Assembly: GCF_024502345.1 (NCBI RefSeq)
Contig: NZ_JALDNN010000001.1
Strand: one strand, 5' to 3'
DNA: 64,000 bases
Source: Escherichia coli
GTDB taxonomy: Bacteria; Pseudomonadota; Gammaproteobacteria; Enterobacterales; Enterobacteriaceae
Positions 4,443-62,232 of the stretch are shown here, piece by piece. Under the pieces are notes generated by a model. It was given only the letters and a program-made list of their open reading frames with translations. It was not told the DNA's origin and ran no database searches. Position 1 is the stretch's first letter. Each line of letters opens with the position of its first letter. Both the position numbers and the translations under genes were made by a program.

Positions 4443-5494
4443 AATCCCAGCACCAGTTGTCTTTCCATTTGCGGATCCAGCAACGTCACATGCAGCCCCA
4501 CCAGTCGCACACCTCGCCCGCCGCGGCGTTCATCCCAGGTTTTACGCGCGGTGGCGATTAAGTCAGCTTTATTCAGCCTCGGCCAGACGTGCTCCTGGGT
4601 GGTTTGCTGAAAATCGTCGAACTTTAATTTCACCCCCTGGCGAGCAATCAGTAAATCAGGTTTTACCTTTGCCAGACGGCGTTCAAGTTCCGGATACAGC
4701 CGCTCGATAATCGCTTCACATTCAGACCAGTGATGAATATCTTCCGCCATCGTGCGTTCCACGCCGACGGATTTTCGCAACCGTTCGCTGTTAACATCGC
4801 GTTCGTCAATCCCCTGACTACGCTCCCACAAAATGCGGCCAAATTTGCCAAAGCGTTTAAGCAGCATCACCAGATCACACTTTTGTACATCACCGCAGGT
4901 CCGCAGCCCCATCGCTTCCAGTTTTGCCGCCGAGACTTTGCCGACGCCGGGGATTTTTGCCAGTGGTAAGGTTTGTAAAAATGCCGGAACTTCTGCCGGC
5001 GTAATCACAAACTGGCCGTTGGGTTTATTCATGTCGGAGGCGATTTTGGCGAGAAACTTTACTGGTGCCACGCCCGCAGACGCCGTCAGTTGCAGCTCGC
5101 TGAAAATCGTCTGGCGGATTTCCTGGGCGATGAGGGTCGCAGAACCGTGGCAATGGACGCTATCGGTGACATCGAGATAAGCCTCATCCAGTGACAACGG
5201 TTCAATGCGCGAAGTGTAGCGCGAGAAGATTTCACGGATATGATTTGAGGCTTCTTTGTAGGCGTCAAAGCGCCCCGGAAGCAAGGTGAGATGTGGGCAT
5301 AATTTGAGCGCCATCCCAGTAGGCATAGCGCTACGTACGCCAAATTTACGCGCGGGATAATTGGCGGTGCTGATCACCCCCCGACGTTCGCGGCTGCCGC
5401 CAATAGCAATAGGGATATCGCGCAGGGCGGGATTGTCGCGCATCTCCACCGCTGCGAAAAAGCAGTCCATATCCACATGAATGATTTTACGCAT
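4439..5494 (-). CDS. dinB: DNA polymerase IV (Y-family translesion polymerase)
   Basis: 351-aa [36 protein letters not shown]... Confidence 0.95.
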
Positions 5495-6455: not shown

Positions 6456-8034
6456 CCAGGCGCAGGCGCAAACCCGGCGTAAAGATGTCGCCAGCGAGGC
6501 CGATTTCTACGGCGCGATGGACGGGGCATCGAAGTTTGTGCGCGGGGATGCCATCGCCGGGATGATGATTCTGGCGATCAACCTGATCGGCGGCGTCTGT
6601 ATCGGGATCTTCAAATACAACCTGAGCGCCGATGCCGCCTTCCAGCAATATGTGCTGATGACCATCGGCGACGGCCTGGTGGCGCAGATCCCTTCCCTGC
6701 TGCTCTCCACGGCGGCGGCGATAATCGTCACCCACGTCAGCGACAACGGCGATATCGCCCATGACGTGCGCCACCAGTTGCTGGCAAGCCCGTCGGTGCT
6801 CTACACCGCTACCGGGATTATGTTTGTGCTGGCGGTGGTGCCGGGAATGCCGCATCTGCCGTTTTTGCTGTTCAGCGCCCTGCTTGGCTTTACCGGCTGG
6901 CGAATGAGCAAACGCCCGCAGGCAGCGCAGGCGGAAGAGAAAAGCCTCGAAACGCTGACCCGCACCATCACTGAAACCAGCGAGCAACAGGTCAGTTGGG
7001 AAACCATTCCGCTGATCGAGCCCATCAGCTTAAGCCTCGGCTACAAACTGGTGGCGCTGGTGGACAAAGCGCAGGGCAACCCGCTCACCCAGCGGATTCG
7101 CGGCGTGCGGCAGGTGATTTCTGACGGCAACGGCGTGCTGCTGCCGGAGATCCGCATTCGGGAAAACTTCCGCCTTAAGCCCAGCCAGTACGCTATTTTC
7201 ATCAACGGCATTAAGGCTGATGAAGCGGATATTCCGACGGATAAACTGATGGCCCTGCCCTCCAGCGAAACCTACGGCGAGATTGACGGCGTGCTGGGGA
7301 ACGACCCGGCGTACGGGATGCCGGTGACCTGGATCCAGCCTGCGCAGAAAGCGAAGGCGCTGAATATGGGGTATCAGGTGATCGACAGCGCCAGCGTGAT
7401 TGCCACCCATGTGAATAAGATTGTACGCAGCTATATTCCTGATTTGTTTAACTATGACGACATCACACAGTTGCATAACCGTTTGTCGTCGATGGCACCG
7501 CGCCTGGCAGAAGACTTAAGCGCGGCGCTGAATTACAGCCAGTTGCTGAAAGTGTACCGCACACTACTGACCGAAGGCGTTTCCCTGCGCGATATCGTCA
7601 CCATCGCCACCGTGCTGGTCGCCAGTAGCGCGGTGACTAAAGATCATATTCTGCTGGCGGCCGATGTACGCCTGGCGCTGCGGCGCAGCATTACCCATCC
7701 GTTCGTTCGCAAGCAGGAGCTGACGGTGTATACGCTGAATAATGAGCTGGAAAATCTGCTGACCAACGTGGTGAATCAGGCGCAACAGGGCGGTAAAGTG
7801 ATGCTCGACAGCGTGCCAGTGGACCCGAATATGCTCAACCAGTTCCAGAGCACGATGCCACGGGTGAAAGAGCAGATGAAAGCGGCGGGGAAAGATCCGG
7901 TGCTGCTGGTGCCGCCGCAGCTGCGTCCTTTGCTGGCGCGCTACGCAAGGTTGTTTGCGCCGGGGCTGCATGTGCTGTCGTATAACGAAGTGCCGGACGA
8001 GCTGGAGTTGAAGATTATGGGGGCCTTGATGTAG
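6295..8034 (+). pseudogene. lfhA: FlhA-like flagellar export protein, N-terminally truncated (Flag-2 remnant)
   Basis: 579-aa ORF begins mid-protein in an FlhA-conserved region (FTLDAMPGKQMAIDADL); about 110 N-terminal residues are missing. Confidence 0.75.
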
Positions 8035-8039
8035 GTATT

Positions 8040-8215
<176 letters not shown>

Positions 8216-8219
8216 ACAA

Positions 8220-8717
8220 TTATGAAATGATACGCTCCCCGGCACTAAAATCCGTTATGTCTCCCGCCCAATCAATGGGATATAACCCTCGCGCCACATC
8301 GCGATGGAACGTTGAGAATGGCCAATCTCTCACCTGCTTTACCCAGCCATGTTTCACTGGATTTATATAAATATAATCAACATGATGTCGGTAATCTGTG
8401 GTATTGCGAATGGCATGCTCCCAAAAACGCGGTTGCCAGATATTATTCAATCCGCAAGCATGGGTGAACTGCTTTTTAATCTCCCGCCAGCGGGAGGAAA
8501 AATCATCATCGCTTTCGGGTAATGTCCATATGCAATGCATATGCTCCGGCAAAACTACCCAGGCATTAATTTCAAAAGGTCTGGCTCGCTTAACTTTAAT
8601 AATGGCGTTACGGAGCGTCTGGTACTGGGTAGTCAAAAGTTGGCTTCGACGATTCCGTAAATTCACCGTGAAAAACCAGCTTCCCCCCTTGAGGTAATAA
8701 CGACGATATTCAGACAT
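8220..8717 (-). CDS. rayT: REP-associated tyrosine transposase RayT (TnpA-REP)
   Basis: 165-aa ORF MSEYRRYYLKGGSWFFTVNLRNRR...; flanked on both sides by REP clusters. Confidence 0.9.
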   Translation of the reverse strand: MSEYRRYYLKGGSWFFTVNLRNRRSQLLTTQYQTLRNAIIKVKRARPFEINAWVVLPEHMHCIWTLPESDDDFSSRWREIKKQFTHACGLNNIWQPRFWEHAIRNTTDYRHHVDYIYINPVKHGWVKQVRDWPFSTFHRDVARGLYPIDWAGDITDFSAGERIIS

Positions 8718-8807
8718 AGCGACTCCTTTTTCTCAACGGTAAGAGGAAAAGGAAAGGTCGGCAATGAGGTGATGGAATAACGGGAAAGCAGCTCGCAAAA
8801 ACGCACA

Positions 8808-8895
8808 AATTTGTAGGCATGATAAGACGCGCCAGCGTCGCATCAGGCATCGGTGCACAACTGCCGGATGCGGCGTAAACGCCTTATCCGTCCTA
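8808..8895. repeat. REP/BIME cluster
   Basis: Same REP units as at 8040-8215, on the other side of rayT. Confidence 0.8.
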
Positions 8896-9642
8896 CAAAA
8901 TCGTCTCCTCCGTCAAAATCCGGCGCGCGCCTAAAAAATGATCCTGCCAGAAAGGTTCAGCTAACCGACTTACCCGAATGGTTTCCCCGGTGCGCGGTGA
9001 CTCAATAAACTGACCGTCGCCCAGATACACCCCCATATGGTCGGCAATCTCACGACTGTGAATATGGAAAAACAGCAAATCTCCCCGGCGCAGGTCGTTA
9101 TTCGCCACAATCGTTGCCCGGCGGTAGTGATACATCTCATTGGCCGTGCGCGGGAGCTTCGCCTCGAGGATCTTGTTGTAGGCATAAAAAACCAACCCGC
9201 TACAGTCGAAGCCTTTATCAGGCCGCGTGCCGCCCCAGACGTAAGGCTTGCCAAGCTGCTGCTCCAGGCGGTGAATCGCCACTTCGGTGATGTTATGCAG
9301 GTGATCGCTGCTTAAAAAGTGGTTGTTTTCCGCCAGCGCCTGCCAGCGTCTGTCACTCGCCTTGAGCGGCGCAGGAAACCATTCTGGATGCTGTTTTATC
9401 TGTTCGCGGTTGTGCTGGCGCAGCGCCCTTCTGCTTTCGGCATTGCCTTCCACAATATAGCTGGCCTGCTTTTTCAGATGGGTTTGGTACTGTTTTAATA
9501 AACGCGCACGGTTTTGCATCCGCTGGCGGGCGGCGTAGCTGAAAGAGATATGTGATGTGGTGGCGCTGGCAAATGAAGAAAACGGCAAACAAATCAACAG
9601 TAATCCCGACAATACAAAGGATGGAATCGACGGCAAGGACAT
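8893..9642 (-). CDS. yafL: NlpC/P60-family lipoprotein peptidase YafL
   Basis: Start moved to MSLPSIPSF... (cat at 9640-9642); catalytic Cys context DCSGLVFYAY; the track ORF extends further upstream to 9702. Confidence 0.85.
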   Translation of the reverse strand: MSLPSIPSFVLSGLLLICLPFSSFASATTSHISFSYAARQRMQNRARLLKQYQTHLKKQASYIVEGNAESRRALRQHNREQIKQHPEWFPAPLKASDRRWQALAENNHFLSSDHLHNITEVAIHRLEQQLGKPYVWGGTRPDKGFDCSGLVFYAYNKILEAKLPRTANEMYHYRRATIVANNDLRRGDLLFFHIHSREIADHMGVYLGDGQFIESPRTGETIRVSRLAEPFWQDHFLGARRILTEETIL

Positions 9643-9819
9643 ACTCAATAATGGCTGGTCATGCTTTAATGTTGCAGTGTATCCCGGATCGTTTCTGAAC
9701 AAACTTAATAAACCATTATTATAAAATTAACATATATATTTCAGTGAATTATGTAAATACATCAGTTTATTGAATTGTTCATGAATTGCCGCTGTTGCTC
9801 ATTTGAGCTACAATTCAAG

Positions 9820-9835
9820 CTGAATAAATATACAG
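9820..9835. promoter_or_regulatory. LexA box upstream of dinJ-yafQ
   Basis: CTGAATAAATATACAG (CTG-N10-CAG) 17 bp upstream of dinJ. Confidence 0.6.
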
Positions 9836-9851
9836 CACAGGAGATACCCCA

Positions 9852-10112
9852 ATGGCTGCTAACGCGTTTGTTCGTGCCCGAATCGATGAAGATCTGAAGA
9901 ATCAGGCGGCGGACGTACTGGCCGGGATGGGGCTGACCATCTCTGACCTGGTTCGCATAACCCTCACAAAGGTCGCGCGTGAAAAGGCATTGCCGTTTGA
10001 TTTACGCGAGCCTAATCAATTAACCATTCAATCAATCAAAAACAGCGAAGCTGGCGTTGATGTTCATAAGGCCAAAGACGCCGATGATTTATTTGATAAA
10101 TTAGGAATTTAA
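9852..10112 (+). CDS. dinJ: Antitoxin DinJ (RelB/DinJ family)
   Basis: 86-aa ORF MAANAFVRARIDEDLKNQAADVLAGMGLTISDLVRI... Confidence 0.9.
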   Translation: MAANAFVRARIDEDLKNQAADVLAGMGLTISDLVRITLTKVAREKALPFDLREPNQLTIQSIKNSEAGVDVHKAKDADDLFDKLGI

Positions 10113-10114
10113 AT

Positions 10115-10393
10115 ATGATTCAAAGGGATATTGAATACTCGGGACAATTTTCAAAGGATGTAAAACTTGCACAAAAGCGTCATAAGGATATGAATAAATT
10201 GAAATATCTTATGACGCTTCTTATCAATAATGCTTTACCGCTTCCAGCTGTTTATAAAGACCACCCGCTGCAAGGTTCATGGAAAGGTTATCGCGATGCT
10301 CATGTCGAACCGGACTGGATCCTGATTTACAAACTTACCGATAAACTTTTACGATTTGAGAGAACTGGAACTCACGCGGCGCTCTTTGGGTAA
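10115..10393 (+). CDS. yafQ: mRNA interferase toxin YafQ
   Basis: 92-aa ORF 3 bp after dinJ; MIQRDIEYSGQFSKDVKLAQKRHKDMNKL... Confidence 0.9.
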   Translation: MIQRDIEYSGQFSKDVKLAQKRHKDMNKLKYLMTLLINNALPLPAVYKDHPLQGSWKGYRDAHVEPDWILIYKLTDKLLRFERTGTHAALFG

Positions 10394-10548
10394 AGCACGC
10401 TGCCGATGAAATTTGTAAACCCTGCGCCGACAGGCTTGCGTAAAACTCTTTTGGTGATAATGTGAGCCTTCCAAATCCAGACTATTCCGATTTGGGATCT
10501 ATTTTGCCGTCCTGGCGTGTGTAACCGTTTTATCAAGGAATAAGCAGT

Positions 10549-11289
10549 ATGCGTAAAATCGCATTAATTCTTGCGATGTTGTTGATCCCGTGCGTTTCGT
10601 TTGCCGGTTTGCTGGGCAGCAGTAGCTCGACCACGCCAGTGAGCAAAGAGTATAAGCAGCAGTTGATGGGATCCCCTGTCTACATCCAGATCTTCAAGGA
10701 AGAACGTACGCTCGATCTCTACGTCAAAATGGGCGAGCAATATCAGCTGCTCGACAGTTATAAAATCTGTAAATATTCCGGCGGCTTAGGGCCAAAACAG
10801 CGTCAGGGCGATTTCAAAAGCCCGGAAGGGTTTTATAGCGTCCAGCGTAATCAGTTAAAACCAGACAGCCGTTACTACAAAGCGATTAATATTGGTTTCC
10901 CCAATGCCTATGACCGTGCGCATGGTTATGAAGGGAAATACCTGATGATCCACGGCGATTGTGTTTCCATCGGCTGCTACGCAATGACCAATCAGGGTAT
11001 TGATGAGATCTTCCAGTTCGTTACTGGTGCGCTGGTGTTTGGTCAGCCGAGCGTGCAAGTGAGTATTTACCCGTTCCGCATGACCGACGCCAATATGAAG
11101 CGCCATAAATATTCCAACTTTAAGGACTTCTGGGAGCAACTGAAGCCGGGTTACGACTACTTTGAGCAAACCCGTAAGCCACCGACCGTTTCTGTGGTCA
11201 ATGGTCGTTACGTGGTCAGCAAGCCGTTAAGCCACGAAGTTGTGCAGCCACAACTGGCATCAAACTACACGCTCCCCGAGGCAAAATAA
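10549..11289 (+). CDS. yafK: L,D-transpeptidase-like periplasmic protein YafK
   Basis: 246-aa ORF with signal peptide [19 protein letters not shown] and YkuD-like core ([12 protein letters not shown]). Confidence 0.9.
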
Positions 11290-12027
11290 GCGCCATTCGC
11301 CTGGCATAATCTTTTGCCAGGTTTCATTGCCCGTCAGCGGCTGTGTTGCAATCACCGTGACCACATCATTCGGTGTGGTCTGCGAGCTGAAGTCGATTTC
11401 CACATCCTGATCCAGCAGCGTTGCCACGCCAAACGGCGCGCGGCGGGTGATCCAGTGTAAATTAGTCGAGCAATACGCCATCACATAGCGCCCGTCAGAA
11501 AGCAGCATGTTGAAAACGCCCTTCTGCCGCAGTTCATCCGCCAGTGAGGCGATATATTTAAACACTGCCGCCATGTTGCCCGGTGTGCGCGGGTAACGCT
11601 GCGTTAATTTATGCAGGAGCCAGCAGAAGGCTTTTTCGCTATCGGTTTCACCGACCGGGCGGAAGTTGCCGGTTTCCAGTGATTTGTAGCCCGTCAGTTG
11701 TCCGTTATGGGCATAAGTCCAGTTACGCCCCCATAACTCACGGGTAAACGGGTGAGTATTTTCCAGCGCCACCTCGCCCCGATTGGCCTGGCGAATATGA
11801 GCCACCACCGAACAGGATTTTATCGGGTAGTCCTGGACAAGTTTGGCGATGGGGGAATTAAAGCTGGGTTGTGGATCTTTAAATGTGCGACAGCCTTTAC
11901 CTTCGTAAAAGGTAATGCCCCAGCCATCTTTATGTGGCCCGGTTCCACCACCACGCTGCACCAGACCGGTGAAACTAAAGCAGATATCGGTAGGGACGTT
12001 GGCGCTCATCCCGAGCAATTCGCACAT
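11260..12027 (-). CDS. yafJ: Class II glutamine amidotransferase YafJ
   Basis: Start moved to [12 protein letters not shown]... (cat at 12025-12027), preceded by GGAGG; N-terminal Cys nucleophile. Confidence 0.9.
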
Positions 12028-12089
12028 GGGTAACCTCCACAACAGCGGGAGCGCATGGCCCCCGGCGAAGATTGATTTAAGAATTTTCA

Positions 12090-12811: not shown

Positions 12812-13050
12812 GAGGATATCCTTCAGCATAAATGTAATAGACAAAATGCAGTGTACCGGATACCGCCAAAAGCGAGAAGTACGGGCAGGTGCTATGACCA
12901 GGACTTTTTGACCTGAAGTGCGGATAAAAACAGCAACAATGTGAGCTTTGTTGTAATTATATTGTAAACACATTGCTAAATGTTTTTACATCCACTACAA
13001 CCATATCATCACAAGTGGTCAGACCTCCTACAAGTAAGGGGCTTTTCGTT

Positions 13051-15495
13051 ATGATGATTTTGAGTATTCTCGCTACGGTTGTCCTGCTCGGCGCGTTGTT
13101 CTATCACCGCGTGAGCTTATTTATCAGCAGTCTGATTTTGCTCGCCTGGACAGCCGCCCTCGGCGTTGCTGGTCTGTGGTCGGCGTGGGTACTGGTGCCT
13201 CTGGCCATTATCCTCGTGCCATTTAACTTTGCGCCTATGCGTAAGTCGATGATTTCCGCGCCGGTATTTCGTGGTTTCCGTAAGGTGATGCCGCCGATGT
13301 CGCGCACTGAGAAAGAAGCGATTGATGCGGGCACCACCTGGTGGGAGGGCGACTTGTTCCAGGGCAAGCCGGACTGGAAAAAGCTGCATAACTATCCGCA
13401 GCCGCGCCTGACCGCCGAAGAGCAAGCGTTTCTCGACGGCCCGGTAGAAGAAGCCTGCCGGATGGCGAATGATTTCCAGATTACTCATGAGCTGGCGGAT
13501 CTGCCGCCGGAGTTGTGGGCGTACCTTAAAGAGCATCGCTTCTTCGCGATGATTATCAAAAAAGAGTACGGCGGACTGGAGTTCTCAGCTTATGCCCAGT
13601 CTCGCGTGCTGCAAAAACTCTCCGGCGTGAGCGGGATCCTGGCGATTACCGTCGGCGTGCCGAACTCATTAGGCCCGGGCGAGCTGCTGCAACATTACGG
13701 CACTGACGAGCAGAAAGATCACTATCTGCCGCGTCTGGCGCGTGGTCAGGAGATCCCTTGCTTTGCACTGACAAGCCCGGAAGCGGGTTCCGATGCGGGC
13801 GCGATTCCGGACACCGGGATTGTCTGCATGGGCGAATGGCAGGGCCAGCAGGTGCTGGGGATGCGTCTGACCTGGAACAAACGCTATATTACGCTGGCAC
13901 CGATTGCGACTGTGCTTGGGCTGGCGTTTAAACTCTCCGACCCGGAAAAGCTGCTGGGTGGCGCAGAAGATTTAGGTATTACCTGTGCGCTGATCCCGAC
14001 CACCACGCCGGGCGTGGAAATTGGTCGTCGCCACTTCCCGCTGAACGTACCGTTCCAGAACGGACCGACGCGCGGTAAAGATGTCTTCGTACCGATCGAT
14101 TACATCATCGGTGGGCCGAAAATGGCCGGGCAAGGCTGGCGGATGCTGGTGGAGTGCCTCTCGGTAGGCCGCGGCATCACCCTGCCTTCCAACTCAACCG
14201 GCGGCGTGAAATCGGTAGCGCTGGCAACGGGCGCGTATGCTCACATTCGCCGTCAGTTCAAAATCTCTATCGGTAAGATGGAAGGGATTGAAGAGCCGCT
14301 GGCGCGTATTGCCGGTAATGCCTACGTGATGGATGCTGCGGCATCGCTGATTACCTACGGCATTATGCTCGGCGAAAAACCTGCCGTGCTGTCGGCTATC
14401 GTTAAGTATCACTGTACCCACCGCGGGCAGCAGTCGATTATTGATGCGATGGATATCACTGGTGGCAAAGGCATTATGCTCGGGCAAAGCAACTTCCTGG
14501 CGCGTGCTTACCAGGGCGCACCGATTGCCATCACCGTTGAAGGGGCTAACATTCTGACCCGCAGCATGATGATCTTCGGACAAGGAGCGATTCGTTGCCA
14601 TCCGTACGTGCTGGAAGAGATGGAAGCGGCGAAGAACAATGACGTCAACGCGTTCGATAAACTGTTGTTCAAACATATCGGTCACGTCGGTAGCAACAAA
14701 GTTCGCAGCTTCTGGCTGGGCCTGACGCGCGGTTTAACCAGCAGCACGCCAACCGGCGATGCCACTAAACGCTACTATCAGCACCTGAACCGCCTGAGCG
14801 CCAACCTCGCCCTGCTTTCTGATGTCTCGATGGCAGTGCTGGGCGGCAGCCTGAAACGTCGCGAGCGCATCTCGGCCCGTCTGGGGGATATTTTAAGCCA
14901 GCTCTACCTCGCCTCTGCCGTGCTGAAGCGTTATGACGACGAAGGCCGTAATGAAGCCGACCTGCCGCTGGTGCACTGGGGCGTACAAGATGCGCTGTAT
15001 CAGGCTGAACAGGCGATGGATGATTTACTGCAAAACTTCCCGAACCGCGTGGTTGCCGGGCTGCTGAATGTGGTGATCTTCCCGACCGGACGTCATTATC
15101 TGGCACCTTCTGACAAGCTGGATCATAAAGTGGCGAAGATTTTACAAGTGCCGAACGCCACCCGTTCCCGCATTGGTCGCGGTCAGTACCTGACGCCGAG
15201 CGAGCATAATCCGGTTGGCTTGCTGGAAGAGGCGCTGGTGGATGTGATTGCCGCCGACCCAATTCATCAGCGGATCTGTAAAGAGCTGGGTAAAAACCTG
15301 CCGTTTACCCGTCTGGATGAACTGGCGCACAACGCGCTGGCGAAGGGGCTGATTGATAAAGATGAAGCCGCTATTCTGGTGAAAGCTGAAGAAAGCCGTC
15401 TGCGCAGTATTAACGTTGATGACTTTGATCCGGAAGAGCTGGCGACGAAGCCGGTAAAGTTGCCGGAGAAAGTGCGGAAAGTTGAAGCCGCGTAA
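13051..15495 (+). CDS. fadE: Acyl-CoA dehydrogenase FadE
   Basis: Start moved to [20 protein letters not shown]... (ATG 13051), giving 814 aa; the track ORF starts 26 codons upstream. Confidence 0.95.
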
Positions 15496-15537: not shown

Positions 15538-16011
15538 TTATTTAAAATTAAAGCCATCCGGATGGTTTTCCAGGCTGCCGGTCAACGCCGCGAACAGCAC
15601 CGTTTTACCATCAATCGAAAGCGCATCGTTCACATTCAGCCAGGTGAGTTTCTCTTGCGACGTTTTCTCATCAATAGTCGAGAACAGCCCCGTCATCTGA
15701 TTAGATTTCTCGGACCACATCACAGCGATACGTTGCGAGCCACAGTCATGCGGTTTGCACGCGCTCATCACCTGATACGTCTCATCTCCCAACGTTACGG
15801 TTTGTGCGGGAGTATAAGTACCGCCTTTCATCACCCAGGCAGGCAGCTTATGCCCTTGTACCATCTGATTAAATGCAGCTTTGGTGGTTTCGCCCTTTGC
15901 AAGGCTGCTAATGGTTAAATCATCCTGCGCCATTGCACTGGTGGCGATGACCAGAGCGGCGACTGTCGTTATTGCCTTAAACATCATTCCTCCCGAGCTT
16001 ATCCTGCCCAT
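15538..16011 (-). CDS. ivy: Inhibitor of vertebrate lysozyme Ivy
   Basis: 157-aa ORF with signal peptide and CKPHDC motif. Confidence 0.95.
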   Translation of the reverse strand: MGRISSGGMMFKAITTVAALVIATSAMAQDDLTISSLAKGETTKAAFNQMVQGHKLPAWVMKGGTYTPAQTVTLGDETYQVMSACKPHDCGSQRIAVMWSEKSNQMTGLFSTIDEKTSQEKLTWLNVNDALSIDGKTVLFAALTGSLENHPDGFNFK

Positions 16012-16164: not shown

Positions 16165-16935
16165 GTGCCTGGTTTGAAGATTACGCTTTTGCAGCAACCA
16201 CTGGTGTGGATGGATGGCCCTGCCAACCTGCGTCATTTTGATCGTCAACTGGAAGGTATTACCGGGCGCGATGTGATCGTTCTACCGGAGATGTTTACCA
16301 GCGGCTTTGCCATGGAAGCGGCAGCTTCGTCGCTAGCACAAGATGACGTAGTGAACTGGATGACAGCTAAGGCGCAGCAGTGCAATGCGCTGATTGCAGG
16401 CAGTGTTGCATTACAAACGGAGTCTGGTTCGGTTAACCGCTTTTTGCTGGTTGAGCCGGGCGGCACGGTACATTTTTATGATAAGCGTCATCTGTTCCGC
16501 ATGGCAGATGAGCATCTACATTATAAAGCGGGCAATGCGCGAGTGATTGTGGAATGGCGCGGCTGGCGTATTTTGCCGTTGGTGTGCTACGACTTACGTT
16601 TTCCGGTGTGGTCGCGCAATCTCAACGATTATGACCTCGCCATCTACGTTGCCAACTGGCCTGCTCCGCGCTCTCTGCACTGGCAGGCATTGCTGACGGC
16701 CCGCGCGATTGAGAATCAGGCGTATGTGGCGGGATGCAATCGCGTCGGCAGCGATGGCAACGGCTGCCATTATCGCGGTGACAGCCGGGTGATTAATCCA
16801 CAAGGCGAGATTATCGCTACTGCCGACGCGCATCAGGCAACGCGCATTGATGCGGAGCTGTCGATGATGGCATTGCGGGAATATAGAGAAAAGTTTCCGG
16901 CATGGCAGGATGCGGATGAGTTTAGGTTGTGGTGA
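16165..16935 (+). CDS. yafV: Nitrilase-superfamily omega-amidase YafV
   Basis: C-N hydrolase ORF (...[19 protein letters not shown]...); GTG at 16165 chosen because AAGGAG sits 9 nt upstream; the track starts at TTG 16156. Confidence 0.85.
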
Positions 16936-17007
16936 GTGGGGGTTGTGTTTAAGGACGGGGAGAGTCGGGGTATTACTACGAAAGCCCGCTCTCCTGCGAC
17001 CACTTTT

Positions 17008-17175
17008 ATCATAGGAGTGTGGAAGCGCTTTTCCATCAATTGCGATGACGTCTTTATCATTTGATGAATGGCAGTCACGCATCCAGTTAATAAAGCATTC
17101 GTGAAATTATACTGAACGGATACAAGACATAACTCTAATTATGGTGTCGTGAACAGGATTACCATTTTCAAAATT
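17008..17175 (-). mobile_element. H-repeat (ISAs1-family transposase gene) internal fragment, copy 1
   Basis: Reverse strand encodes ...[25 protein letters not shown]...; a near-identical 168-bp copy lies at 18928-19095. Confidence 0.6.
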
Positions 17176-17206
17176 ACGATATTATTTGCAGTAATTATGT
17201 TATTAA

Positions 17207-17719
17207 TCATTGTGATATTTCCATCTCTGTGATTAATACCGGATAAGCATTTAATTGCAGAGTTTGCACGAAATTATCGCAGATAACTGGCAATAACAAT
17301 AACCCATCAGCCCGCTGCTGTAATACCTCCATTCGTTCTACTGATTCAACATTAACAACCAAACCAAGGGCATTTAGCGATTTAAGGATCTCCAGATGTT
17401 CACTCATCCAGCGCAGAGAAAAAGGATCATCCCCAATTATAAAAACAGCCCCCCAGCCGGTTAATAACTGGCGTTTCATTACAGAGCCAGGATGAAGTCG
17501 AGTACATATTACAGGAAATACCCCCTGTTGCGATGGTTCCGATGATGTGGATAATTCAGAAATATTTTCCATTGTTAGTGAAGAATTAACATCCATTAAT
17601 AATGGTGAAACAACCTCACTTTCCTTGCTAGTAATGGCTGCACTAATCTGAAAGGGAAATAACAATATTATTACGTATAAACTCATTTTTAACATAACAC
17701 ATTCAATCCGTTTATTCAT
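17207..17719 (-). CDS. Hypothetical secreted protein (signal peptide), unknown function
   Basis: 170-aa ORF in an AT-rich block; hydrophobic N-terminus MLKMSLYVIILLFPFQISAAITSK; no family recognised. Confidence 0.45.
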   Translation of the reverse strand: MNKRIECVMLKMSLYVIILLFPFQISAAITSKESEVVSPLLMDVNSSLTMENISELSTSSEPSQQGVFPVICTRLHPGSVMKRQLLTGWGAVFIIGDDPFSLRWMSEHLEILKSLNALGLVVNVESVERMEVLQQRADGLLLLPVICDNFVQTLQLNAYPVLITEMEISQ

Positions 17720-17785
17720 GTTATAGAATAATGATGCTATAAATCATCATTAATGTTCAATTATTTAATCACACAATTTGAAAAA

Positions 17786-18289
17786 TCATTGACCAATGTG
17801 AATTGGCAATGTACCACTCAAGTTAAAATCACTGAATATTTTATCAATTTCTCTTGCAGTTTCTATATATTTAACCTCTTTCGTACTTGCATTATAAATA
17901 GCCCAAGCCTCGGGATGGGATGTTCCACCAAACCTTACAAAAAAACTTGATTTCATATTATTATATAAATTAACATCAGGAAAAGGATCTTCTCCAAAAT
18001 TAGTAGTATTGAATAATGAAAGTTCGTATCGCTTAGAAAATTCTGTTGGTAGGATAGCTTCACTGCCATCAATAGCATTCATCCAGAGTTTGTTACCATT
18101 ATATTCCAACAATAATCTCTGTTTTGCATGTGTCTTATCTCGTTCTTTAACGACAGCGAATACCTTTTTAACAACTTGCTGTGCGGATGGTCCTATTGTA
18201 TTACCAAAAGCTGGCAACCCGATTTTGCCATAAACACTCTCCTGAATGAAATAAATATCCGTTTTATCGGCCTCGACAATATCTACCAT
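17786..18289 (-). CDS. Hypothetical protein, unknown function
   Basis: 167-aa ORF in an AT-rich block between the H-repeat fragments; no family recognised. Confidence 0.45.
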   Translation of the reverse strand: MVDIVEADKTDIYFIQESVYGKIGLPAFGNTIGPSAQQVVKKVFAVVKERDKTHAKQRLLLEYNGNKLWMNAIDGSEAILPTEFSKRYELSLFNTTNFGEDPFPDVNLYNNMKSSFFVRFGGTSHPEAWAIYNASTKEVKYIETAREIDKIFSDFNLSGTLPIHIGQ

Positions 18290-18612
18290 TTATCCCTCCA
18301 AACAAGACCTGACTCCAGTACAAGAGCATAGTGTGTAGTAAACACTTCATGCTCTTGCCTTGACCATTGAAATAACAACTTTCGTTTGTTTACTGTACGC
18401 TGTCTAAATAGCTGCGTGGAATAAAGTTGCACTTTTTATCATCCCTTGCAGAGCAAGATTACGAAAGCCCGCCCCCGAAAGGACTGACGCGAGGTAGTCT
18501 CTGTCCGCAGCTGCTTTCACATCTTACATCTTGCCCCTGCCTTGAGTATCTTATCTTTCTTTGAAATATTAATAGCGATGTTCCGTATCCCTGAAAATAA
18601 TTCTGTTGCATT

Positions 18613-19095
18613 TCATCTTCTTATTATAAAGTCGTCTTTATTCATTACCACGTCCAGATGCCAGTGCAATTTATTCTCCACTTGCCAGTGATTTCGGTTC
18701 GCTGTGGCGAACTTCTCTGCGGTTAAATCAGCAGAAATGCTATAATATCTGTCCGTCATTTCTGGCTCTTTCTTTTGTTCTGTTATTATTGAACGAAAGG
18801 AGACTGCCATGCATAATTTCTTCAGCCCTTTTCATTCAAACGTGAAATCAATAAGTTCATCAGGGACATCGCAAATAATATGAAGACGGATTTTAATGAC
18901 ATAAATCGCTCCCTTGCGGCGACTCTTGTCATAAGAGTGCCGAAGCGTTTTTCCATCAATTGCAATGACATCTTTATCATCTGAGGAATGGCAGTCACGC
19001 ATCCAGTTAATAAAGCACTCATGAAATTTTGCAGGACTGATACAGGATACAACTCTGGCAATGATATCGTGAACAGGAATACCATTTTCAAAATC
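18613..19095 (-). pseudogene. H-repeat-associated (ISAs1-family) transposase remnant with internal deletion
   Basis: C-terminal ...[21 protein letters not shown]... (65-aa ORF) plus an upstream copy of the [14 protein letters not shown]... fragment. Confidence 0.65.
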
Positions 19096-19440
19096 ACCAT
19101 ATCACTTCAAAAAATTGGGATGTGTTTCCCCAAATCATCTATATCTTCCCAGCCTTATGCACCAAAAATAACGGCGCAAATAGTTAACAGATAGAATATC
19201 TGGCAATTTATGTTCCACTTTCCAGGCTTGCCTGTAATCGGGGATAATAGAAATATGTTCCATCAATTTTTTAAGTTCCATTTTGTCCCCCTTAATTATG
19301 CAATGAGTATTTGATCATGTATAAGCAATGAAAAACAGCTTTAGGTAATAAGGAACACCTCAATTATTGAACATAAAATGCGAATTATTTAGTACAAAAA
19401 AAACAGCATTACGTGATTTTTCCCTGGGAGTACAGTGTGA

Positions 19441-19490
19441 AGTTTCCGGCATGGCGGGATGCGGATGGGTTTGAACTGGGGTGAATAGGC
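19441..19490. repeat. Imperfect direct repeat of the yafV 3' end
   Basis: agtttccggcatggcgggatgcggatgggtttgaactggggtga closely matches 16892-16940 (agtttccggcatggcaggatgcggatgagtttaggttgtggtga). Confidence 0.6.
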
Positions 19491-21246
19491 ACTACATGTC
19501 TACATTTTCCCGGTCACCAACCCCTCAATCTTATGAACTTAACCTCGGCTCACCGTTTTCGATTCCATCCAATAAATGACCCGGTTGGATGTGGGCTGAT
19601 CGCCAACAACTTTGCCATCTGCAGAGATTAGCTTCAGCTCTTTATTAGCCTCATCACCGAAGTAAATCATGCGGTAGCGAAAATAACCGCCCCAGGGTTC
19701 ACGTCCACCCAGCGAACTTTGCATAAACCAGGCGCGGGAGTCGTGAACCTGGTCATCATAGAGGGCCAGTAATTCAGCGCATGGCTGAGTACGCGTTCCC
19801 GTTCCCAGTGAATCAATAAAAAATTGTGGATAGAGTCCGTCTCCCATAGCCTTAATTTGCTGATATTCTTTTGCTTCATCATCGCCATTAATCAGATACA
19901 CCGGATATTTAGGAATGACATCCACAAGAATCTGAATGGCTTTCTCCATGACGCTGCCGTTAATATCGCGCGTCCATCCTTTATAATCGCTCTGAAATTC
20001 TCGGGCTGCCTCTCGCAACTGATACTGAGCATTGGTTGGGTCAAGGATAGGAATGCCCTGATTACTTTCATCAAGTGTGCCATTCCCTTTCTGCTTGTTC
20101 GCCCGCTCTTTTTCAATATTTTCCATTTGTTCTTTACGCGCTTTAGCCTCTTTATCAAGTCCATCTTTATCCAGCTGTGGCGCCTTAATATAAAAAGGTT
20201 GCACAAGAAGGCTGTTATTCGCATAGCGACCGATACGCCAGGCGGTGATCCAGCCGATCTGATCGCTAATTGCGCTTTCAAGAACCTGGGCAAGTTGATA
20301 GGAGTGATAACCTTCCCTCGTATCAATCATTTCTTCTGTACCCTGCAAGGTGGTGTTCAGCAGCGTTTGTCGCCAGATGTTGAAGCGTTTTGTTAATGAA
20401 TTAGCAATCGTAAATTCCTTTACGCTAGAAGGACTCATAATTCGCAGAGGCGACACACCTTTTATTAATGGAGTAACAAATTTAGAATAAACAGCAAGTG
20501 GTGCTCCTGAATCAAATGCAGCAAGATACATATCATGCAGTGCTATCTGAGAAAGAATTTCGCCTGAGTCACCACAGGACTTCCCCTGATCGCGAACGGG
20601 ATAGCCACCACCGACATCAGAGTGCATCCCCGGATAGATAATTTCCGTCTGGACGACGGATTGAATCCAGCGGAAAGCACAGCCGCTGCTCATGCGCGGC
20701 AACGAAGTGGCGGCAGCATTTAATCAGGCCGGGAAACTGCCTCTCATCAGGGAGTTGCTGAGTACTATCGGCCCATCCCATATGACCGGCAGCGCCCGGT
20801 AAAACATGCGCCGCCCCCACAGAAGCTACGGTATCCAGCAGCCCCAAAAACTCAATACTGACAGCTAACCCGGCCAGCATCACCTGTTGCTCCTGCGGGC
20901 AAGCTAACTGAGTCAACCAGTTAACAAAAGTTCGTGCTTCCGCTGCGCCACGGGAAAATCCGTAGATAAACAGCTTTACGTTTAGCAGGCGCGGACTGGC
21001 TTGCTCTAACAGTCCCTGTAATTTTTCCAGGTAGGGGTTAATCACATTGCGACGATTCACTTCACCAGTCATAGGCCAGGGAGCGCGCATAAGAGGAATG
21101 TGCTCTTTTGCCACATTATCATCCAGTCGCTTATGGGAAGGGTCAATGGAATAGTTCAGGGCATCCACGAGGCGTAATAATGCCCAATTAATTCGATCTT
21201 CACCACCAGTAGCGAACTCCAGCCCGCTGTTGCTGTAATCCATTTC

Positions 21247-22303
21247 GGCTTTGTTGAATAAATCGAACTTTTGCTGAGTTGAAGGATCAGATCACGTATC
21301 TTCCCGACAACGCAGACCGTTCCGTGGCAAAGCAAAAGTTCAAAATCACCAACTGGCCCACCTACAATAAAGCCCTCATCAACCGTGGCTCCATAACTTT
21401 CTGGCTGGATGATGAAGCTATTCAGGCCTGGTATGAGTCAGCAACACCTTCTTCACGAGGCAGACCTCAGCGCTATTCTGACCTTGCCATCACGACTGTG
21501 CTGGTCATTAAACGCGTATTCAGGCTGACCCTGCGCGCTGCGCAGGGCTTTATTGATTCCATTTTTTCTCTGATGAACGTTCCGCTACGCTGCCCGGATT
21601 ACAGCTGTGTCAGCAGGCGGGCAAAGTCGGTTAATGTCAGTTTCAAAACGCCCACCCGGGGTGAAATCGCACACCTGGTAATTGATTCCACCGGGCTGAA
21701 GGTCTTCGGTGAAGGCGAGTGGAAAGTCAAAAAGCATGGCCAGGAACGCCGCCGTATCTGGCGTAAGCTGCATCTCGCCGTTGACAGTAAAACACATGAA
21801 ATCATCTGCGCTGACCTGTCGCTGAACAACGTTACGGACTCAGAGGCCTTCCCCGGGTTAATCCGGCAAACCCACCGGAAAATCAGGTCAGCCGCCGCCG
21901 ATGGCGCTTACGATACCCGGCTATGTCACGATGAACTGCGGCGTAAGAAAATCAGCGCGCTTATCCCTCCCCGAAAAGGTGCGGGTTACTGGCCCGGTGA
22001 ATATGCAGACCGTAACCGTGCAGTGGCTAATCAGCGAATGACCGGGAGTAATGCGCGGTGGAAATGGACAACAGATTACAACCGTCGCTCGATAGCGGAA
22101 ACGGCGATGTACCGGGTAAAACAGCTGTTCGGGGGTTCACTGACACTGCGTGACTACGATGGTCAGGTTGCAGAGGCTATGGCCCTGGTACGAGCGCTGA
22201 ACAAAATGACGAAAGCAGGTATGCCTGAAAGCGTGCGTATTGCCTGAAAACACAACCCGCTACGGGGGAGACTTACCCGAAATCTGATTTATTCAACAAA
22301 GCC
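21247..22303 (+). mobile_element. IS903-like insertion sequence (IS5 family), 1057 bp
   Basis: Terminal inverted repeats GGCTTTGTTGAATAAATC at both ends; perfect 9-bp target duplication ATCCATTTC at 21238-21246 and 22304-22312. Confidence 0.9.
21279..22247 (+). CDS. IS903-family transposase
   Basis: ORF ...AKQKFKITNWPTYNKALINRGSITFWLDDEAIQAWYES...; true start may be a few codons downstream of the track ATG. Confidence 0.9.
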   Translation: MKDQITYLPDNADRSVAKQKFKITNWPTYNKALINRGSITFWLDDEAIQAWYESATPSSRGRPQRYSDLAITTVLVIKRVFRLTLRAAQGFIDSIFSLMNVPLRCPDYSCVSRRAKSVNVSFKTPTRGEIAHLVIDSTGLKVFGEGEWKVKKHGQERRRIWRKLHLAVDSKTHEIICADLSLNNVTDSEAFPGLIRQTHRKIRSAAADGAYDTRLCHDELRRKKISALIPPRKGAGYWPGEYADRNRAVANQRMTGSNARWKWTTDYNRRSIAETAMYRVKQLFGGSLTLRDYDGQVAEAMALVRALNKMTKAGMPESVRIA

Positions 22304-22659
22304 ATCCATTTCACCTATCTTGGGAAATGGTGTGCCTACACCCGGTATATAGTAGTTAAAATATCCCTGTTCTTCTGCGTTCTGATAGGTCGTATGAAAC
22401 AGTTTGGCAATATTGGTTGGGTGTCCAGGAGTGTCATTATATTCATTATTATTTGTACCATCAAAAAACAGACTAATATGCAGACTTTGATTACACGTAA
22501 AGCCAATTCTAAATCCAGCCTGTTTACTACAGTTGGTTTTGTGCTCTTCTGTTTTATTGATTTGTTTTAGGTAGTTCGCGTTTACCTGCGCTTCAGATAA
22601 TATTAATCGCCCATCTTCAGGGAACAACGGGGGGGCATAACACGGAAAAGCCAGACCAC

Positions 22660-23202
22660 TTATTTTGCTGGACATGTTGCAGGTTCCTTCATCTCGCGGG
22701 GTTCTTTGATAGGATAATTCGGTGTGCCATAGCCCTCGCAGACGGTTGTCACTTTAATCTGATTACACGGCAGAAAATGAACGGTCAGGCCACAACGTTC
22801 AGCGCCGTATTCCGGGATGTCAACAATTACTTTATATTTTTGATAATTTGCAGCATGTTTAGCATAAGCATCTTCTTCATAGCCAAAACCTTCTTTTTTC
22901 ATTGCAATAGGTTCAAGGGGGTTCGGGTCTACTTCCCACTCGATCCGGGCTTTTAATCCAGAATGCCACTTCTTTGGTAACATTATGCAGCAATATCCAC
23001 CGCCCAAACCATGGACCCGATAACCATTTACGGTGAACCAATTAATACTGATACCTTTAATATGATTTATTGCCCGGAGATCACCAGCAGTATAATCGTC
23101 GTAATTAGCTGCTGAGCAACCCGAAATCACCATCAAAATTAACACCAGACAGCCTTTAACTACTTTTGTTATATTCATTCCATTTCTTATTTTGCTGGAC
23201 AT
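22660..23202 (-). CDS. Lipoprotein next to the Tle1 effector gene (possible Tli-type immunity protein)
   Basis: 180-aa ORF with lipobox LILMVISGCSA; sits immediately upstream of the Tle1 fragment; the immunity role is inferred from position only. Confidence 0.5.
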   Translation of the reverse strand: MSSKIRNGMNITKVVKGCLVLILMVISGCSAANYDDYTAGDLRAINHIKGISINWFTVNGYRVHGLGGGYCCIMLPKKWHSGLKARIEWEVDPNPLEPIAMKKEGFGYEEDAYAKHAANYQKYKVIVDIPEYGAERCGLTVHFLPCNQIKVTTVCEGYGTPNYPIKEPREMKEPATCPAK

Positions 23203-62155: not shown

Positions 62156-62232
62156 TGGCGGAACGGACGGGACTCGAACCCGCGACCCCCTGCGTGACAG
62201 GCAGGTATTCTAACCGACTGAACTACCGCTCC
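62156..62232 (-). tRNA. aspV: tRNA-Asp (anticodon GUC)
   Basis: Reverse complement reads GGAGCGGTAGTTCAGTCGGTTAGAATACCTGCCTGTCACGCAGGGGGTCGCGGGTTCGAGTCCCGTCCGTTCCGCCA (77 nt with CCA). Confidence 0.97.

Follow-up and report, generated by a model that had tools for sequence, protein, structure and literature searches.

A two-gene unit between decayed ISAs1 copies beside yafV in Escherichia coli: probable edge of a variable type VI secretion island, with a possible link to a family of cargo effectors

Is the short block that follows yafV in a 64,000-nucleotide segment of the Escherichia coli chromosome (contig NZ_JALDNN010000001.1, assembly GCF_024502345.1; the whole segment is hereafter called the window) a mobile element in its own right, and what do its two genes encode? 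The question arises from the layout, in which an intact yafV is followed by a second, diverged copy of its own 3′-end (yafV′), with insertion sequence (IS) fragments of the ISAs1 or H-repeat type and two open reading frames (ORFs) in between. A sequence-only reading had proposed a 2.5-kb module bounded by the yafV repeats, delivered as a unit with two proteins of no recognisable family, possibly an effector and its immunity protein. The block is probably something else, namely the yafV-proximal edge of the variable aspV-yafV type VI secretion system (T6SS) island, where piled-up ISAs1 elements enclose the last two genes of a foreign operon (the cargo) and where yafV′ is a recombination scar. 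Both genes are already annotated in RefSeq; what is new is the link to an undescribed T6SS-associated protein family and the unusual partner gene, which encodes a DUF2859 protein.

The order of the features is yafV, a 41-bp spacer, the remnant ISAs1-B, the DUF2859 gene, a gene for a 167-aa protein, 159 bp of non-coding DNA, the longer copy ISAs1-A, the 58-nt yafV′, 54 bp, and tle1, at the following positions of the window:

16165-16935, plus strand: yafV (2-oxoglutaramate amidase), intact, from the ORF and from how RefSeq annotates identical loci; the final 59 nt (16877-16935) form repeat copy 1
16977-17196, minus strand: ISAs1-B, a 220-bp ISAs1/H-repeat remnant, from alignment to ISEc1
17207-17719, minus strand: PFL_4695/DUF2859 gene, 170 aa, from family hidden Markov models (HMMs), signal peptide and the ratio of nonsynonymous to synonymous substitution (dN/dS)
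17786-18289, minus strand: gene of the 167-aa protein, cytoplasmic product, from ORF, family search and dN/dS
18290-18448, minus strand: non-coding stretch upstream of the two-gene unit
18449-19426, minus strand: ISAs1-A, ISEc1-like, with both terminal inverted repeats, from alignment to ISEc1
19427-19484, plus strand: yafV′, relic of a divergent yafV allele and repeat copy 2, from self-comparison and YafV clusters
19539-22675, minus strand: tle1 (T6SS phospholipase effector) pseudogene, convergent with yafV′ and outside the block

Self-comparison of the window bore out the yafV repeat: the 3′-end at 16877-16940 matches 19426-19489 (78% over 64 nt), and a 33-nt core at 16891-16923 differs from its counterpart at 19440-19472 by two mismatches. 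These are the sole two matches of the core in the window, and none was found in any of 100 window shuffles. The H-repeat pair is also real, the segment 16987-17196 matching 18907-19116 (81% over 210 nt, against 168 bp in the sequence-only reading), but the right-hand copy does not touch the cargo and lies ~450 bp inside the 978-bp ISAs1-A. Moreover, the H-repeat belongs to a dispersed IS, with a median of five and a maximum of 12 matching places per E. coli genome (one of these places comes from the ~140 nt of yafV that the query also contained), and dispersed repeats are among the findings that the sequence-only reading had itself named as refuting it.

The ends of the IS elements were defined by aligning the segment to a complete ISEc1 (locus L009) and three other copies, and read CAGGGCAAGATTACG ... 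CGTGATCTTTCCCTG. ISAs1-A, 978 bp long and 90–92% identical to complete ISEc1, belongs to the ISAs1 family by its terminal inverted repeats (CAGAGCAAGATTACG ... CGTGATTTTTCCCTG) and its transposase homology, and has an internal 312-bp deletion (junction 18893/18894) that joins ISEc1 position 447 to 760, the transposase frame being broken. ISAs1-B consists of ~18 nt of a right end (TACGAAAGCCCGCTCTCC) fused to an internal piece equivalent to ISEc1 773-969 (83%), and lacks the left end, most of the right inverted repeat and an intact transposase gene. The fragments match transposase model NF033564. No target-site duplication of ISAs1-A was found, its flanks ATCCCTTG and GGAGTACA being different, and with broken frames, the 312-bp deletion and unduplicated flanks the copies do not qualify as recent mobile ones. 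Because the ISEc1 773-969 region is present in both copies, they represent two different elements and not one split by the cargo. The junction of yafV, 41-bp spacer and ISAs1-B is identical to the yafF junction of K-12 and was seen at all or nearly all E. coli loci examined.

In strain PK8275 (L036, 8213-12534), a separate intact ISEc1 is located at the equivalent of window position 18398, 51 bp nearer to the 167-aa gene than ISAs1-A, and beyond it a further ISAs1 copy is interrupted by a group II intron (ltrA), which indicates that the spot has been targeted repeatedly by ISAs1. In O104:H4, two tandem ISAs1 copies lie beside the Rhs-YdcD end, and the area is an ISAs1 nest.

Among 5,426 complete E. 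coli genomes, 540 cover at least 80% of positions 16800-19600 and 553 at least 80% of the cargo alone, whereas some part of the cargo, always in single copy, is present in 758; the cargo is absent from 86% of the genomes. The segment is thus found in 10–14% of complete genomes, and the haplotype from yafV through ISAs1-A in ~10%. This haplotype is conserved and is joined to different right-hand flanks: locus L001, for instance, is collinear with the window up to position 19426 and continues into PAAR-like, DUF2169 and VgrG genes, with no second yafV end, so the proposed repeat-bounded module dissolves. The combination of yafV′ and the tle1 flank was found in only ~72 genomes, only ~71 of the ~553 block carriers have the second yafV end, and yafV′ occurs only with the Tle1-type flank. 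Since yafV′ is limited to that flank and starts at the IS end, the relic belongs to the flank, and ISAs1-A is the recombination joint; tle1 accordingly lies outside the block, in the flank to which yafV′ belongs. In 12 genomes the cargo is present as a divergent allele, and a further group keeps the DUF2859 part only, beside IS630. What did hold from the sequence-only reading is a foreign segment shaped by old recombination, as the two ORFs, both on the minus strand, lie in AT-rich DNA (28–42% GC, flanks 50–59%) of restricted distribution.

The relic itself comprises the last ~19 codons and the stop codon of a yafV gene, encoding (E)YSVKFPAWRDADGFELG and ending in KFPAWRDADGFELG before the stop, and it abuts the left inverted repeat of ISAs1-A directly. 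In the window as well as in strains FDAARGOS_944 (L005), NC101 (L007) and LP5-1 (L008), it starts right after ...TTTCCCTG. Comparison of 120 YafV clusters revealed a C-terminus of exactly KFPAWRDADGFELG in three clusters of another enterobacterial lineage (P0116, P0121 and P0130), which are 82–83% identical to E. coli YafV; the protein ends in ...F(T/E)LG in most genera and in ...EFRL(W/R/L) in E. coli. In the lineage with the relic-type end (L029), dnaQ comes directly after fadE-ivy-yafV and there is no island. At the DNA level, yafV′ matches the E. coli tail and the L029 tail equally (47/59 nt each), and left of the core it has GAGTACAG in common with L029, where E. coli has GAATATAG. The shared C-terminus and the tail comparison together indicate that yafV′ is a genuine remnant of a divergent yafV allele, which was either imported with the Tle1-type island or ancestral. 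In NC101 (L007, ~4990-5036), two tandem ISAs1 left-end motifs (GATCTTTCCCTG ... GACCTTTCCCTG) precede yafV′, showing that the IS end at this junction was rearranged at least once more in some lineages.

The present arrangement probably arose as follows. A divergent yafV allele beside a Tle1-type island would have been fused, at its position -59, to an ISAs1 copy. Homologous recombination with a chromosome of the common type (yafV, ISAs1-B, gene pair, ISAs1) would then have installed the intact yafV together with the pair, with crossovers in fadE-ivy-yafV on one side and within ISAs1 on the other, so that the displaced yafV end remained behind as a scar. Later recombination between the two ends can delete the block. 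Such a case is probably strain ChlosBP-23-1 (L006), which lacks the block and, alone among the 5,426 genomes, has tle1 immediately after yafV. Its yafV is a hybrid, of E. coli type up to the 33-nt core and of yafV′ type from the core onward. Left of the core, 5 of 14 positions differ between this strain and the relic in the carriers, as against only 1–3 over the next 260 nt. On these differences, the most likely reading of L006 is a recombination product of the two repeats, in which the 2.5-kb block was deleted, and not an ancestral empty site.

Alternatively, yafV′ could be the ancestral Escherichia yafV end, a new tail and ISAs1-B having been placed after the yafV body long ago, at the root of E. 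coli, with later loss of yafV′ from most lineages through T6SS rearrangements. The YafV end of most enterobacteria, which resembles yafV′, would agree with this, the E. coli end (...EFRLW/R/L) being unusual and variable, and so would the junction of tail, 41-bp spacer and ISAs1-B in all E. coli loci examined, including K-12. However, the replacement tail has no evident source, yafV′ is confined to ~72 genomes and one flank type, and it is equally distant (80%) from the E. coli and outgroup tails. We consider this history unlikely.

A longer operon around the cargo genes became visible at a divergent allele of the gene pair that likewise adjoins ISAs1 and yafV (E. coli OU349849.1, locus L013). 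There, positions 6931-11031 hold a five-gene operon encoding proteins of 327, 411, 137, 165 and 164 aa, of which the last two align to the cargo of the window with 67% and 74% amino acid identity; nucleotide identity is 76% from position 18330 to 17207, and the homology ends at 18330. The 137-aa product of the upstream genes is thioredoxin-like, whereas a Pfam search of the 327-aa and 411-aa proteins gave no match, and the 411-aa protein had a sub-threshold match to TIGR02270 (87 bits versus a cutoff of 207). The L013 operon may be the ancestral full form of the cargo. By this comparison, the pair in the window is the tail of a formerly longer foreign operon, and the idea of a small cargo delivered as a unit does not stand. 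Comparing the two alleles gave a dN/dS of 0.30 (167-aa gene) and 0.36 (DUF2859 gene), and the frames stay unbroken over ~165 codons, which indicates that both are real genes under purifying selection (dN/dS ~0.3) and hence probably functional.

These values also bear on the possibility that the two ORFs are functionless debris, a fragment of a stranded integrative and conjugative element (ICE) of the MPF_G type or of a decayed island, kept by hitch-hiking between the IS copies. In its favour, DUF2859 is otherwise found in ICE and plasmid transfer modules, the genes are dispensable, being absent from most genomes and disrupted by IS630, ISEc60 or IS1 in some, and the promoter scan gave no excess over shuffles. 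Yet alleles that are 24% apart in nucleotides keep both frames open, hundreds of intact cargo copies exist at 95–100% identity, no other ICE gene lies nearby, even in the L013 operon, and the 167-aa family was not linked to ICEs at the foreign loci examined. Mere debris is thus quite improbable.

Weaker still is the model of a discrete 2.5-kb element that integrated site-specifically in the yafV 3′-end, bringing a replacement end and att-like direct repeats and delivering two genes. It would explain the imperfect direct repeats of a gene 3′-end with their well-conserved core, the intact yafV, and the resemblance of L006, with its hybrid yafV joined in the core, to an empty or excised site. But neither the ORF list nor the family scans revealed an integrase or recombinase in the segment, the right junction is exactly the inverted-repeat end of ISAs1, ~87% of the block-carrying genomes have other flanks and no second repeat, the cargo is a truncated operon tail, and the differences left of the core make L006 a recombinant and not the ancestral target. 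The model is therefore largely refuted and very improbable. Also rejected were a composite transposon (the left end and most of the right inverted repeat are missing from ISAs1-B, and the transposase gene is intact in neither copy), an integrase island (no recombinase ORF, and no second yafV end in most block carriers) and an ICE remnant.

The 167-aa gene has a Shine-Dalgarno sequence, GGAGGG, 5 nt upstream of the start codon. The claim of no recognisable family holds for this ORF in Pfam, NCBIfam and PADLOC, which returned no match, and for its predicted fold, which had no relative in PDB. An Eag-type chaperone or Hcp-like identity was considered and dropped, as there was no structural match to either. 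A word-based search found E. coli relatives only, whereas a full HMMER scan of 1.84 billion representatives retrieved 31 proteins, mostly of ~190 aa and with 30–40% identity; the family extends across Enterobacterales, Burkholderia and marine gammaproteobacteria. Almost invariant are G64, G98, D100, P101, P103, L107, Y108, F115, G120 and G121, with no conserved Cys or His, and all clusters of the family are named 'hypothetical protein'. The PADLOC defence models matched neither of the two ORFs nor any of the L013 operon proteins.

A context search with a narrower family alignment gave one Serratia ureilytica locus only. Identity of the Serratia member with the effector Ssp3 (SMDB11_1112), a protein of 20.6 kDa (PMC4924876), cannot be claimed on a comparison by mass, the member having 21.9 kDa. 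In Salmonella Senftenberg NCTC10384 (L035, 4959-5318), a 119-aa fragment with 36% identity to the family lies between sseK1 and rpoC; the record is labelled plasmid 4 yet carries chromosomal genes (thi operon, rpoBC).

Gene neighbourhoods were compared among the foreign relatives. At locus L014 the family gene lies 15 nt downstream of hcp, and at L025 directly after tssB-tssC inside a T6SS cluster; at the other loci, including those of Serratia and Morganella, housekeeping genes flank islets of two or three genes. The gene that comes next at each of the nine foreign loci encodes a fast-evolving protein of 135–157 aa, often with an overlap of 4–14 nt. For eight of these downstream proteins, translation and scanning showed two to four hydrophobic segments (seven of them have four), and these eight are polytopic membrane proteins; a DUF805 membrane protein gene often follows. 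No homologue of the partner with four transmembrane (TM) segments was found in the window, and in both E. coli alleles the 167-aa gene is followed by the signal-peptide DUF2859 gene, so that the partner family differs from that of the foreign loci. An adjacent downstream gene for a small envelope-located protein is thus in place. At L025 (metagenome contig, JGI 3300078837; 7001-12062), the tssC-tagJ interval is a small-gene array that resembles several effector-immunity pairs: the 192-aa family member and its 4-TM protein at the head, three proteins with signal peptides, a Cys/His amidase-like protein of 126 aa whose partner is a signal-peptide protein of 183 aa, and a glycine-zipper protein of 275 aa whose partner has 153 aa.

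For the second ORF, the claim of no recognisable family failed. It is 170 aa from the first ATG (162 aa from the RefSeq start at 17695) and matches TIGR03765 PFL_4695 over the full model 1-105 with 119.4 bits (cutoff 59.75), which places it in the family, as well as Pfam DUF2859 (PF11072) with E = 7.1e-28; RefSeq labels it 'integrating conjugative element protein'. The signal peptide proposed earlier is there, as a Sec-type peptide with hydrophobic residues 4-22, and is followed by a ~35-residue low-complexity linker and the 105-residue DUF2859 domain, for which a thioredoxin-like fold without CxxC is predicted. The motifs GDDxxSxxW and YPxLIT are conserved. Relatives on plasmids and ICEs have 32–44% identity and reside in MPF_G modules, directly after a lytic transglycosylase gene and before traD. 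The ORF list and family scans revealed no conjugation genes in the window segment or in the L013 operon, so the MPF_G context is missing, and the likeness to the conjugative-element proteins is weak, to be taken as a lead. The literature gives no function for DUF2859. In two plasmid loci (L033, 4396-5534; L034, 4243-5321), the DUF2859 gene is adjacent to the preceding gene or overlaps it by a few nucleotides; this gene is an annotated lytic transglycosylase in a Pantoea plasmid and a hypothetical protein at the equivalent position in pUM505. The fixed adjacency in MPF_G modules hints at a functional link of DUF2859 with a cell-wall enzyme.

The context of the 167-aa family, a small gene next to hcp or tssBC or in an islet and followed by a membrane-protein gene, has, as read from these loci, the genetic pattern of a cargo effector that is paired with an immunity protein in the membrane, and gives indirect support to the earlier effector/immunity guess for the 167-aa ORF. 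On this basis we lean slightly towards a T6SS effector family. The 167-aa protein would be the E. coli branch of a cargo-effector-like family whose usual partner is a polytopic, immunity-like protein of the inner membrane, and in E. coli this partner would have been replaced by a periplasmic, redox-inactive thioredoxin-fold DUF2859 protein. The role of the latter may be to bind the 167-aa protein or neutralise it, or may be an unrelated one. For the E. coli pair itself an effector/immunity role is plausible. That the E. coli copy is an active toxin is a possibility on the doubtful side, and an immunity function of the DUF2859 protein for the 167-aa protein is somewhat more doubtful again. The joint proposal, an undescribed T6SS cargo-effector family with a novel fold, from which E. 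coli has shed a 30-residue subdomain and swapped the membrane immunity protein for a redox-dead DUF2859 protein from conjugative modules, is speculative and unlikely to hold in every part.

Several observations weigh against these views of the origin and the function. The order of events that created yafV′ is one we infer, and the exact yafV′ tail had no match in the GTDB species representatives, so that no donor species was identified. T6SS gene linkage was seen at only two of the nine foreign loci (L014 and L025), the remainder being orphan islets. The E. coli branch lacks a ~30-residue insert and has a pI of 5.3–5.9, as opposed to ~9.2 in the relatives; with the acidic pI and the lost insert, the E. 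coli proteins may have lost or changed their activity. DUF2859 is otherwise a protein of conjugation modules. Furthermore, the DUF2859 gene is split while the 167-aa gene is intact in FDAARGOS_944 (ISEc60; L005, 8408-10794) and in LP5-1 (IS1; L008, 2032-3891), which is hard to reconcile with an essential immunity role unless the toxin is inactive or not delivered. In LP5-1, the T6SS island between yafV′ and aspV is wholly replaced by IS1.

On the left of the block, the window carries fadE (12973-15495) and ivy (15538-16011, minus strand) ahead of yafV, and on the right, beyond the tle1 phospholipase effector gene and Tli1a-type immunity genes, the remaining T6SS island reaches the tRNA-Asp gene aspV (62156-62232). 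The aspV-yafV interval, a known T6SS-1 hot spot, contains only yafF, yafU, ykfM and yafT in K-12. The tle1 gene is disrupted by an IS5-family element of ~1057 bp (~21247-22303; transposase ORF 21279-22247, 9-bp overlap of the flanks), and a frame break near 20617-20702 splits the remainder into ORFs of 387 aa and 208 aa; the Tli1a-family immunity gene downstream (22660-23202) is intact. An Rfam scan of 16500-20000 gave no match, and terminator-like sites (five versus 1.7 expected) included none that could be interpreted. A 16-nt inverted repeat at 18321-18357 (CAAGAGCATAGTGTGT / ACACTTCATGCTCTTG; 81% complementary), 32–68 nt upstream of the start codon of the 167-aa gene, partly overlaps the stretch conserved with the L013 allele and may act as an operator or form an RNA hairpin.

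As this locus illustrates, a gene end that has been displaced can look like an att site, and the repeat architecture described here is an ordinary outcome of IS insertion and homologous recombination at a known hypervariable locus, not one to be catalogued as a new mobile element. The 'hypothetical protein' of ~550 complete E. coli genomes, including NC101, is now tied to a wider protein family with an effector-immunity signature. If confirmed, the family would be an additional family of antibacterial effectors, and if the proposed exchange of partners were true, the pair would illustrate how one immunity-protein family is swapped for another and would be the first functional context for DUF2859, suggesting a role for a domain that is conserved in PAPI-1/pKLC102-type conjugative elements.

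Compared with known systems, the locus has most of its parts in common with others. The H-repeat clusters that lie distally in Rhs and T6SS loci of E. coli, such as those of K-12 (yafF next to yafV, ydcC, yhhI, ybfD/ybfQ), are of the same IS family, orientation and terminal repeats (CAGGGCAAGATTACG), and K-12-type clusters likewise contain tandem decayed copies downstream of Rhs/T6SS toxin-immunity genes; unlike them, two copies here enclose a conserved two-gene unit, and one ISAs1 copy is joined to the relic of a second yafV end. Genomic islands that integrate in gene 3′-ends similarly repeat the 3′-end of their target directly, leave the target gene intact and have a variant lost through the repeats, whereas here an integrase is lacking, one of the repeats adjoins an IS end, and most block carriers do not have that repeat. 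With MPF_G elements of the PFGI-1 and pKLC102/PAPI-1 type, the E. coli protein shares the DUF2859 domain and the N-terminal signal peptide, although its gene stands alone, with no conjugation genes and 32–44% identity. Cargo effector-immunity pairs of the T6SS (Tae-Tai, Tse-Tsi type) are encoded after hcp or as orphan two-gene islets. Unlike these, the 167-aa family has no fold relative in PDB and no conserved catalytic Cys/His motif, and the downstream partner in E. coli is a periplasmic DUF2859 protein whose gene can be IS-disrupted while the upstream gene persists. Like these, the relatives of the 167-aa protein are small and cytoplasmic with no signal peptide, a gene for a small envelope protein lies immediately next to theirs and often overlaps it, their pairs follow hcp, lie within a T6SS cluster or form islets flanked by housekeeping genes, and the E. 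coli pair is located 1.2 kb from tle1, at the edge of a T6SS island.

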